This document shows, one piece after another, positions 26,518 to 28,773 of a stretch of DNA of 64,000 nucleotides. Source of the DNA: Vicinamibacterales bacterium (GTDB lineage: Bacteria; Acidobacteriota; Vicinamibacteria; Vicinamibacterales; UBA8438); NCBI GenBank assembly GCA_965221305.1, contig OZ244881.1, positions 3,670,091 to 3,734,090 on the forward strand, written 5' to 3'. Every line of letters starts with the position of its first letter. The stretch's first letter is position 1. The notes under the pieces were generated by a model. It saw only the letters and a program-made list of their open reading frames with translations, did not search any database and was not told the origin of the DNA. A program made the translations under genes and the position numbers.

Positions 26518-28773
26518 ATGCGGCCGCTGACCGGCGGCCATCGTTGCGGTTGGATGTTGTCGCTCTGGGCGGCCGTGGCGGTCGCCGGTGATGCGGCTGC
26601 GCAGGGAAGCGCAGCGTCGGATCGAGCGGCCCTCGAGGCCCTCTACGACGCGACCGGCGGCGCGGGCTGGACGAACGGCACGAACTGGCAGTCGTCGGCG
26701 CCGCTCGGCGACTGGCACGGCGTGACGACGGATGCCTCGGGCCGGGTCACCGAGCTGAGGCTCGGCGAGAACGGCCTGACCGGTTCGATTCCCGCCGCGT
26801 TGGGAAGCCTGGGGGCGCTTCAGTGGCTGGACTTGAGCTCGAACGACTTGAGCGGCTCGATCCCGAGCGCCATCGAGGACCTGGGGAGCCTCTTCTTCCT
26901 GAACCTCTCGGGGAACGGTTTGGACGGTTCCGTGCCCGCGTGGTTGGGGGACATGCCCGACCTCCTGGCGCTGTACCTGTCGGGGAACGAGCTGACCGGC
27001 GGGATCCCGGACGAGCTGAGAAACCTGAACCTCTGGGGGCTGGGTCTCTCGTGGAACGACTTGACCGTCGGCCCCGTCCCCGCGTGGTTGAGGAGCCACA
27101 CCAACCTCCGGTGGCTGTACTTGTCGGGGAGCGAGGTGACCGGCGGCATCCCGACTTGGATGGGGGACTTGGTGAACCTCGAGGCGCTGTACCTGTCGGG
27201 GAACGACCTGACGGGGCCGATTCCGGGTGCGCTGGGGAGGCTCGGGAACCTCGAGCATCTGAGCCTGGCCTATAACTGGGGCGTATCGGGCTCGCTTCCG
27301 CCCGGCCTGCGGCGCGCCGGTCTCGATGAGCTGGACATTCTCGTCACCCGGGCGTGCGCACCGCGCGCGTGGCGGGACTGGTTGTCGACGTTGGATTTCA
27401 TGGGGCGGCTGTGCGGCACGGAAACGGACGTCGAGATCGACGTGGCCGTCGTTTATACCCGCGCTGCGCGTGACGCGGCGGGCGGGGCCGCCGAGATCGA
27501 GGCGGAGATCGACCTCATGGTCGCGGAGACGAACCAGGCCTACGAGACGAGCGGGGTGAACCACCGCGTGATGCTCGTAGACCGGTCCGAGGTGCCGTAT
27601 GCGGAGACCGGGGACGGTCACCAGGATCTCGACCGCCTCCTTGATCCGTCGGATGGTCACATGGACGACGTGCACGCCTTGCGCGACCGGGTCGGGGCGG
27701 ACCTCGTCCACCTGATCGTCGGCGAGGCCGAGGACGTCTGCGGCGTGGCTTACCGGCCGGGGGTCTTCGGCCTCACCGTGCAGGGTTGTGGCGGCCTTGT
27801 CTTCGCGCACGAGCTGGGGCACAACATGGGGCTCCAGCACGACCGCTATCAGGTCCACGAGAACGAAGGTGGCACGCAAGCGCATCCGGCATACGGCTAC
27901 GTGAACCAGCGGGCATTCGACGCCGGCGCCCCGGCGTCGAGCCGGTGGGTTACCATCATGAGCTATCGCACCCAGTGCGGGGACGCCGACGTCTCCTGCG
28001 AGTGGTTGCCCGCCTTCTCGAGCCCGCGCCTGCGAACTCCGGAGGGCGATCCGGTGGGCGTCGCCTACGGCGCGGGGGGGTGGGGCGCGGACGGCCCCGC
28101 CGACGCCGTCGCCGTTCTCAACACCACGGGCCCCGCGGTTGCGGCTTGGCGGGACGTGAGCGCCGGGAACTCGGCGCCCGAGCCGGTGGGCACGCTGCCG
28201 CCGCTGACGATCGAGGCGGGTGACGCAGCGGTGACGGTGGACGTCGCAGGCGCGTTTCGCGACCCCGACGGCGACCGGCTGACCTACGGGGCGAGCTCGT
28301 CACGGCCGGCCGCGGCCGTGGTGTCGGTGTCCGGGAGCCGCGTGACGGTGACGCCGCGGGCGCCGGGGTCGACGACGGTCACGGCGACGGCGACCGACAC
28401 CGGCGGCTCGAACCGGACGGCGATCCAGTCGTTCAGCGTGGCCGTGCTTCAACGGTTCACCGATGACCCCATCGTGCCCGGCGAGACGCCGATCAGGGCG
28501 GCTCACATCTCGGAGCTGCGAACCCGTATCGACGGCCTGCGGGCGGGGGCGGGGCTGGGTCGGTTCGCGTGGACGGACCCGGTCCTGCTGGCGGGGGTGA
28601 CGCGGGTCAGGCTCGTGCACCTGACGGAGCTGCGGTCGGCGCTGGCCGAGGTGTACGCGGCGGCGGACAGGTCCGTCCCGCGGTGGACGGACGCATCTCC
28701 GGGGGTGGGCACGACCCCGATCAGGGCCGTGCATGTGATGGAGCTGCGTGCCGCCGTGGTGGCGCTCGAATAG
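26518..28773 (+). CDS. Secreted multidomain protein: plant-type leucine-rich repeats + metzincin (reprolysin-like) Zn protease + Ig/cadherin-like domain + triple C-terminal motif
   Basis: 751 aa from ATG 26518 (alternative start at 26554). Signal peptide, then an LRRNT-like cap ([33 protein letters not shown]). About 9 repeats of LxxLxLxxNxLTGxIP. [12 protein letters not shown] at 27808-27843. Ig-like segment ([11 protein letters not shown] ... TVTATATD). Three copies of PIRAxHxxELR. Confidence 0.85.

Follow-up and report, generated by a model that had tools for sequence, protein, structure and literature searches.

The gene at positions 26518-28773 of a 64,000-nucleotide stretch of Vicinamibacterales DNA (contig OZ244881.1, positions 3,670,091 to 3,734,090; hereafter, the window) raises the question of what role is served by a bacterial protein that joins leucine-rich repeats (LRRs) of plant type, a metzincin metalloprotease, an immunoglobulin (Ig)-like domain and an unannotated C-terminal module in a single chain. 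This 751-residue protein is very probably a secreted protease, as judged from its signal peptide and domain content. The composite reading that we favor, with a probability of roughly one half, is that of a secreted zinc protease in which the LRR part would act as a target-selecting exosite and the tail module as a tether or dock. Functional statements here and below are drawn from sequence, predicted structure and genomic context. Vicinamibacterales are among the commonest soil bacteria, and their interactions with their surroundings are barely known. The features of the gene are as follows.

26518..28773, + strand: complete gene for the predicted secreted LRR-metzincin-Ig-module protein (751 aa; TAG stop at 28771-28773)
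26518..26604, + strand: Sec-type signal peptide (aa 1-29, followed by QG), read from the sequence alone
26605..26745, + strand: N-terminal LRR cap (aa 30-76), a helix and a W..GVTTD strand of plant LRRNT-like shape without the cysteines
26746..27321, + strand: eight plant-specific-type LRRs (aa 77-268; 23-25 aa each)
27322..27429, + strand: C-terminal LRR cap with linker (aa 269-304), in which C280 and C299 are invariant (…DFMGRLCG)
27430..28158, + strand: metzincin catalytic domain, adamalysin/M72-like (aa 305-547)
27808..27843, + strand: zinc-binding motif HExxHxxGxxHD (aa 431-442)
27952..27966, + strand: Met-turn TIMSY with M481 (aa 479-483)
28183..28449, + strand: Big_9 bacterial Ig-like domain (aa 556-644)
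28450..28770, + strand: C-terminal unannotated module (aa 645-751), with units at 28456-28569, 28570-28683 and 28684-28770

The 751 codons of this open reading frame (ORF) were found to run uninterrupted up to the TAG codon. The in-frame start furthest upstream lies at 25981. The ATG at 26518 was accepted as the start because the extension from 25981 to 26518 overlaps the divergent GNAT gene, because homologues begin level with this ATG or a little further downstream, and because it yields a classical signal peptide with a basic n-region, a 12-residue hydrophobic core and an AxA-like site. Residues A26, A28, Q29 and G30 are near-invariant among homologues of the 751-aa protein. The G+C content at third codon positions is 0.89 in a window of 71% G+C, a value typical of real genes there, and a database record (P0001) was found to hold a protein identical to that of the window.

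The LRR solenoid and the protease to which it is joined

The repeat region was matched by Pfam LRR_8, LRR_1 and LRR_4 on aa 76-250 (E-values of 1e-25 to 3e-15). Repeats start at aa 77, 101, 125, 149, 172, 197, 221 and 245, with a capping half-repeat at 269, and all eight fit the consensus LxxLxLxxNxL(t/s)GxIPxxLGxLxx published for the plant-specific (PS) LRR class (PMC2946307), which places the array in that class. Among PDB sequences, the top matches were exclusively plant LRR receptor kinases (GSO1, 2e-111; FLS2, 1e-97; PEPR1, 4e-89). In an AlphaFold2 (AF2) model this part reached a predicted local distance difference test (pLDDT) score of about 90, with HAESA, MIK2, FLS2 and BRI1 as Foldseek neighbours. 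The NCBIfam models of the Xanthomonas effectors XopAE, XopAC and XopL were also found to match this LRR. Taken together, these results identify the solenoid as a bona fide PS-class LRR, a class already known in some bacterial proteins.

Both ends of the solenoid are capped. At the N-terminal side AF2 placed a capping helix at aa 32-46 (pLDDT of about 88), and HMMER aligned GDWHGVTTD of the cap with CSWTGVTCD of GSO1, both cap cysteines being replaced; Pfam LRRNT_2 (PF08263) gave no match to the cap at E up to 10. At the C-terminal side C280, A281, P282, W285, F294, G296, R297 and C299 are invariant in 28 homologues, and the segment …FMGRLCG resembles the plant LRRCT signature 'F.GN..LCG' in a region of low AF2 confidence. 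The plant-type LRR array of the original prediction, which had been made by a model from the DNA letters, was thus upheld by the Pfam, consensus and PDB matches; its 'about 9 repeats' became eight full LRRs plus a capping half-repeat, and its LRRNT-like cap held for the helix and strand shape and the alignment to GSO1 and not for the cysteines, which are absent, or for LRRNT_2. An antisense ORF of 109 aa within the LRR region (26820-27149, - strand) recurs at equivalent positions in 20 loci and is a by-product of repeat and G+C composition, not a gene.

The x positions of the concave face were the most variable among 28 close homologues, with an entropy of 1.02 compared with 0.67 at other non-scaffold positions (Mann-Whitney p = 0.005). 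Because the concave face is where close homologues vary most, the LRR could plausibly serve in targeting.

The region following the solenoid was assigned by profile search. Reprolysin_4, Reprolysin_5 and Reprolysin_3 all scored over their gathering cut-offs on aa 306-488 (E-values of 5e-13 to 1.5e-11). The zinc-motif residues H431, E432, H435, G438, H441 and D442, the Met-turn residues M481 and Y483, and W477 were invariant in 28 homologues; the extended zinc motif and a Met-turn downstream of it mark the metzincin clan. The NCBIfam model of Mep72 (NF052434) matched aa 307-546, the catalytic part only, at an E-value of 3.4e-29 and 101.9 bits against a cut-off of 645. The canonical Reprolysin family (PF01421) fell short at 12.2 versus 20.8 bits, and PDB adamalysins aligned with the catalytic domain solely at the zinc helix (best E-value of 0.028). 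In the AF2 model the upper subdomain showed the expected order of strands and helices with an active-site helix at 425-436 (pLDDT of 60-85). The full-length model, which was built on a shallow alignment, had a predicted template modelling (pTM) score of 0.43 and a linker pLDDT below 50, and gave no usable inter-domain arrangement or lower catalytic subdomain; LRR structures dominated its Foldseek matches.

These matches support the assignment of the catalytic domain as a reprolysin/M72-like metzincin with Mep72 as its closest named relative. Membership failed for three established groups, namely M12B proper, the Mep72 equivalog and M43. Pfam found no M12B propeptide, disintegrin or Cys-rich domain, and the N-terminal side is taken by the LRRs. 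The Mep72 equivalog was rejected, since the catalytic part was matched alone, no carbohydrate-binding module (CBM) was found by Pfam, and there is no co-directional small partner gene. Pappalysin (M43) identity was likewise rejected, as Pfam gave no M43 match at E up to 1 and an Asp follows the third His as in adamalysins and M72.

The Ig-like domain was matched by Pfam Big_9 (PF17963) on aa 561-635 with 26.5 bits versus a cut-off of 23.6 (E-value of 1.2e-5), and was modeled by AF2 as an all-beta fold (pLDDT of 70-89). Matches of Cadherin_5, PKD and Big_2 to this domain were all under their Pfam cut-offs. Of the paired protease names in the original prediction, reprolysin-like was supported and pappalysin-like was not. 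The signal peptide and domain calls bore out a secreted protein of four parts; the term 'receptor-like' did not apply, as the protein has no membrane span and no signalling domain.

The position of the solenoid admits a different use of it, in which the LRR would be an intramolecular latency device that substitutes for a prodomain by masking the active site until it is displaced or removed, with the Cys of GRLCG as a cysteine switch. The LRR sits where metzincin prodomains normally are, Pfam detected no other prodomain, and C280 and C299 are both invariant, C299 being six residues ahead of the first catalytic strand. In addition, Mep72 undergoes autoprocessing and requires an inhibitor (PMC4334185), and the surroundings of the window gene contain no gene for one. 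C280 and C299 would, however, suit a disulfide of the plant-style LRRCT (F.G..LCG) equally well, and a solenoid with a hypervariable concave face exceeds the needs of a plug. Moreover, tandem-unit paralogues repeat LRR-catalytic-Ig units, module proteins with an LRR only exist, and AF2 gave no confident interface between the LRR and the catalytic domain in the model described above. On this evidence we regard latency as an improbable function of the solenoid.

In the targeted-protease reading that we prefer, the protein would be exported by Sec and would then act as an extracellular zinc endopeptidase of the metzincin clan, of modular 'targeted protease' design. The concave face of the LRR would form the exosite, where a putative protein or peptide ligand would be bound, and would in this way select what the protease cuts; paralogues that differ mainly on this face would provide a repertoire of specificities. 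The Ig domain would space the parts. The exosite step and the tethering step considered in the following section each stand, in our estimate, at or slightly under even odds.

The C-terminal module and its relatives

The last 107 residues of the protein were found to comprise a true internal repeat with a period of 38 aa. Its units follow the helix-forming consensus (F/W)TD-x5-G-x-T-P-(I/V)-R-A-x-H-x-x-E-L-R-x-x-(I/L)-x-x-L, and the His-to-His spacing was 38/38 in 67 of 72 homologues. When the isolated domain was modeled by AF2 from a 14-sequence alignment of the domain alone, a pLDDT of 89.5 and a pTM of 0.84 were obtained, with helices at 18-34, 56-72 and 94-107 of the 108-aa segment joined by 21-residue loops. 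The three helices are inferred to be parallel in a pseudo-threefold bundle, since loops of 21 residues would allow the chain to return. The three copies of a motif of about 21 aa in the original prediction are thus a real triple repeat, corrected here to the helices of a folded 3 × 38-aa domain.

The module was found in many other proteins, as a profile search for the motif suggested by the original prediction confirmed. Homologous domains were detected with E-values of 1e-40 to 1e-51 in a search of 1.84 billion proteins, far beyond chance, and the profile matched 6,689 of the 50%-identity cluster representatives of these proteins at E ≤1e-3, 961 reaching ≤1e-30. Short fragments made up most of what word-indexed searches with the module returned, and their source names read only 'hypothetical protein'. 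The module forms the protein end in most of the 150 best matches, whose proteins range from about 150 to 2,615 aa, and a minority of proteins have it internally or at the N-terminus. The domains that accompany it in 53 representatives were Big_9 (44), He_PIG (29), LRR (25), PKD (21) and Reprolysin_5 (17), in addition to cadherin-like, CARDB, Calx-beta and FG-GAP domains. This partner set reads as the vocabulary of extracellular adhesive proteins, and the distribution indicates an independent, promiscuous extracellular domain.

No family was found over the module in Pfam-A 2025, NCBIfam 20.0 or PHROGs v4 (E up to 10), divergent and phage versions included; the best matches were at chance level (DUF6052, E-value of 0.18; phrog_27552, 0.18; MamG, 0.023). 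A profile search of PDB sequences with the module returned noise only (fucose isomerase, E-value of 0.7), and Foldseek against the PDB was negative (best E-value of 2.4; template modelling (TM) score below 0.4). The earlier view that the motif lies outside known domains was thus confirmed, and the module looks like a new, unannotated domain family of considerable size.

A group of six module proteins or loci (P0252, P0254, P0277, P0302, L060 and L061) was observed in which the module is internal and is followed by a CARDB-like domain and a conserved C-terminal domain ending in …GETTS(V/L)SE.G..R, which may be a different terminal tag. In the 488-aa protein P0331 the module is flanked by an Ig-like domain on one side and by an RHS-core-like segment (…DYFGARYYRADLGRFTSIDP…) on the other, and an unassigned C-terminal tail follows; this context resembles that of a polymorphic toxin and has no Pfam match.

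A scan of one genome per species of the GTDB confirmed 240 module-encoding genomic stretches, and all locus counts given here refer to the best 74 of these, examined as 12-kb loci. The constancy of the module at the protein end raises an alternative by analogy to the C-terminal domains (CTDs) of the type IX secretion system (T9SS) and to PEP-CTERM/exosortase, namely that the module would be a sorting or secretion signal that is read, and perhaps removed, by machinery dedicated to export or anchoring. Many secreted proteins of the same genomes, otherwise different, end in this one highly conserved module, and the preference of the module for the C-terminus extends to a fixed ending, …ELRAAVxALE*, in 66 of the 74 ORFs. 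The last Big_9 domain and the module also form the best conserved stretch among the closest homologues, with 84-89% nucleotide identity (window 28156-28778) versus 74-79% for the stretch encoding the catalytic domain. The minority of proteins with an internal or N-terminal module, after which come CARDB, Big_9, RHS-core-like or Hint domains, argues against such a signal, as does the presence of the module in phage tail proteins, which undergo no export. The module sequence has no hydrophobic stretch or anchor, and T9SS CTD, PEP-CTERM, GlyGly-CTERM, dockerin, S-layer homology (SLH) and peptidoglycan-binding domains were all unmatched in the Pfam and NCBIfam module scans. No conserved gene family was found to neighbour the 74 loci, hence no inhibitor, chaperone, processing or secretion partner recurs there; the window gene itself likewise stands alone, with none of these partners close by. 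A sorting function is therefore considered unlikely.

The tether that we prefer for the module would be a shared adhesion or docking tag by which this and many other secreted proteins encoded in the same genomes would be held to a surface, be it that of a target cell or the envelope or matrix of the producer itself; the distal module of phage tail-tip proteins provides the comparison. Six viral contigs in IMG/VR were found to encode module relatives, which scored E-values of 1e-22 to 3e-6 with the domain profile (at Z = 1e6). In two of these (L076 and L077) the module ends ORFs of 519 and 461 aa, respectively, which are partly FN3-like by eye, were assigned no family by Pfam or PHROGs, and are immediately preceded by Dit, a minor tail protein (phrog_538) and a small phrog_13141 protein; L076 encodes a collagen-like tail protein downstream of the module ORF. 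In L080 a Big_7 and LamG protein ends in the module and adjoins lysis genes downstream. In L075 (2534-8759) the module is N-terminal and is followed by a Cys-rich (CxxC-type) linker and a Hint domain, in a gene that comes after a collagen-like fibre ORF. The L075 gene is in turn followed by two ORFs with CxxxCxxC motifs of the radical-SAM type, an odd combination for a tail region. Foldseek against BFVD gave small uncharacterised phage proteins as the nearest structures (TM-scores of 0.68 and 0.61; root-mean-square deviation of about 2.6 Å) at borderline E-values of 0.08-0.3.

The partner domains and the phage relatives suggest that the module is a building block of extracellular proteins or virion surfaces, and its distal place in tail-tip proteins is, by analogy, the best available hint that it binds cell surfaces. 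A broader proposal is tentative, with the odds leaning against it: that this previously undescribed family of pseudo-threefold three-helix domains would serve universally to tether proteins to surfaces or to dock them, as a tag of 'dockerin-like' kind or as a tip that binds glycans and is shared with, or was inherited from, phage tail fibres, and would organise a large, LRR-diversified secretome of targeted metzincins on and around Vicinamibacterales cells.

Family expansion and turnover

The window protein was found to belong to a very large family. The best 120 of more than 3,389 matches to the whole protein all carry an LRR, a reprolysin-like domain and Big_9 and are 740-1,315 aa in length, the long homologues repeating the LRR-catalytic-Ig unit; two Big_9 copies are present in the closest homologues and one in the window protein. 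The sole source name among the 120 was 'M12 family metallo-peptidase [Bryobacterales]'. The 74 best loci came nearly all from metagenome-assembled genomes (MAGs) labelled 'Vicinamibacterales bacterium', many of them complete chromosomes of 5-7 Mb, with at least 7-9 module-bearing loci in a single genome and with tandem arrays. HExxHxxGxxH was present in 44 of the 74 ORFs, twice in seven of those, and the remainder have other N-terminal parts. In a literature search (open access), neither LRR-metzincin fusions nor this family in Acidobacteria nor the motif strings were found to be described. Thus, the fusion of PS-LRR and metzincin and its expansion in Vicinamibacterales appear to be undescribed in the literature searched, an absence of evidence, and the original view of an architecture uncharacterised in bacteria held in that no describing paper was found; what it had not foreseen is that the protein is no singular oddity and has very many paralogues in Vicinamibacterales.

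Comparison of loci provided evidence on how the family changes. The window gene is flanked by genes for an M14 carboxypeptidase, a methyltransferase, an enolase-superfamily enzyme, a GNAT protein and a 205-aa ORF. These flanks were 83-93% (mostly 88-92%) identical in nucleotide sequence to nine loci of Vicinamibacterales MAGs (L024, L071, L025, L012, L015, L030, L021, L065 and L031), a match that places the source of the DNA in this order. In the flank-matched MAGs a paralogous LRR-metzincin, in one or two tandem copies, was found between the M14 and methyltransferase genes, where the window has a gap of 137 bp (22578-22715), and the slot of the window gene (26342-28835) holds an mtgA-like transglycosylase gene that is not in the window. 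The nearest homologues of the window gene (77-89% nucleotide identity) were detected at unrelated genomic positions. These swapped slots and unrelated positions indicate a family that turns over quickly by gain, loss and replacement.

Turnover of this kind, between genomes that are about 90% identical, together with paralogous expansion and tandem arrays, would also be expected of an inter-organism weapon or effector, that is, of toxin-like proteases directed in an arms race against competing microbes, prey, fungi, protists or plant roots, with LRRs that mimic or engage eukaryotic partners. The nearest similarity of the LRRs is to plant receptor ectodomains, the LRRs also match the XopAE, XopAC and XopL models, their concave face is variable, and a relative of the module occurs in the RHS-core/toxin-like protein P0331. 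By contrast, no immunity-like or delivery-system gene adjoins the loci, and the protein has a Sec signal for export and not the architecture of a type III secretion system (T3SS), type VI secretion system or polymorphic-toxin protein. Host ecology is known only from the soil-type labels of the MAGs, and expansion of secreted hydrolases is typical also of plain nutrient scavenging. A dedicated weapon thus appears to have only a small chance of being the correct account.

The composite reading of a tethered, LRR-targeted protease is not mutually exclusive with parts of the sorting, latency and weapon explanations, and several points weigh against it. The entropy contrast on the concave face is not a dN/dS test, and the concave faces of LRRs are variable in general. 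The lower catalytic subdomain (aa 436-551) had a pLDDT below 35 in the AF2 model, such that the fold is verified in part. A purely structural role could account for the polar residues that are invariant in each unit of the module (His, Glu, Arg and Thr-Asp), and in the phage versions not every unit retains the His. A tblastn search with two module versions against 50,697 genomes of cultured phages (INPHARED) gave no match, so that the phage link rests on the six uncultivated contigs. Finally, the family is known from sequences and models, from which the functional steps are deduced.

Variable plant-type LRRs on many secreted metzincins per genome suggest a programmable repertoire of targeted proteases, with possible uses in nutrition, competition or interaction with eukaryotes. 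If the tether or docking reading is true, an abundant and barely studied soil lineage would carry on its cell surface a repertoire of proteases with receptor-like variable recognition domains. The module itself is a clean target for domain annotation: its members number in the thousands, its fold is predicted with confidence and databases have no entry for it. Its presence in phage tail-tip proteins leads to a concrete hypothesis of surface binding for the tails of many 'hypothetical' proteins.

Other genes of the window were noted. Downstream of the gene are two ORFs of 205 aa each (28797-29414 and 29739-30356, both on the - strand), neither with a Pfam match; the first converges on the 3' end of the gene with 24 bp between the stop codons and is kept in related MAGs (85-88% nucleotide identity) with or without an LRR-metzincin gene. 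A scan for promoters and terminators found nothing. The M14 zinc carboxypeptidase (19750-22533, - strand) and a set of TRAP transporter genes (TatT, DctP and a fused DctQM; 30722-34571, + strand) have no evident functional link to the gene, and peptidase and uptake genes would fit protein scavenging. About 18 kb downstream, a second and unrelated secreted-type metzincin (45939-49346, + strand) with DUF5118, DUF5117 and DUF4953 'Met-zincin' domains (E-value of 7e-98) was found to have neither an LRR nor the terminal module.

Comparison with known systems

Mep72 (PA2783) of Pseudomonas aeruginosa is a metzincin of the M72 family that is secreted by type II secretion, is autoprocessed, has two CBMs and is co-transcribed with its inhibitor BamI (PMC4334185). 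The window protein resembles Mep72 as a secreted metzincin with an N-terminal signal peptide, zinc motif, Met-turn and C-terminal non-catalytic modules. It differs in that only positions 2-233 of the 573 of the Mep72 profile were matched, in that Mep72 has no LRR, Big_9 or triple-helix module, and in that no BamI-like inhibitor partner was found near the window gene. With the adamalysins/reprolysins (M12B), which include the snake-venom metalloproteinases and ADAMs, the protein shares HExxHxxGxxHD with the Asp after the third His, as well as a modular design in which adhesive ancillary domains direct the protease to its targets; it differs in missing the PF01421 cut-off and in having no M12B propeptide, disintegrin or Cys-rich domain.

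The solenoid is similar to plant LRR receptor ectodomains and polygalacturonase-inhibiting proteins in its 24-residue repeat, capping helix and GVT(C/T)D strand. Unlike the plant receptors, the window protein has no N-cap cysteines, transmembrane part or kinase, and its solenoid is fused to a protease. The Xanthomonas proteins XopL, XopAE and XopAC share the PS-LRR, whereas the window protein would be exported by a Sec signal and not by a T3SS.

For the module, two comparisons apply. Like the distal domains of siphophage baseplate and tail-fibre proteins, it ends FN3-like or LamG-containing ORFs that lie between Dit/Tal-like and fibre genes; the module-bearing phage ORFs are themselves uncharacterised, however, and some of their units have lost the His. 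Like dockerins, SLH domains and T9SS CTDs, it is one small conserved module that ends many different extracellular enzymes and adhesins, and it shares with dockerins and SLH domains an internally repeated helix-loop unit with pseudo-symmetry. It differs from all three in that no sequence or profile match joins it to them and in that it has its own signature of 38 aa × 3.

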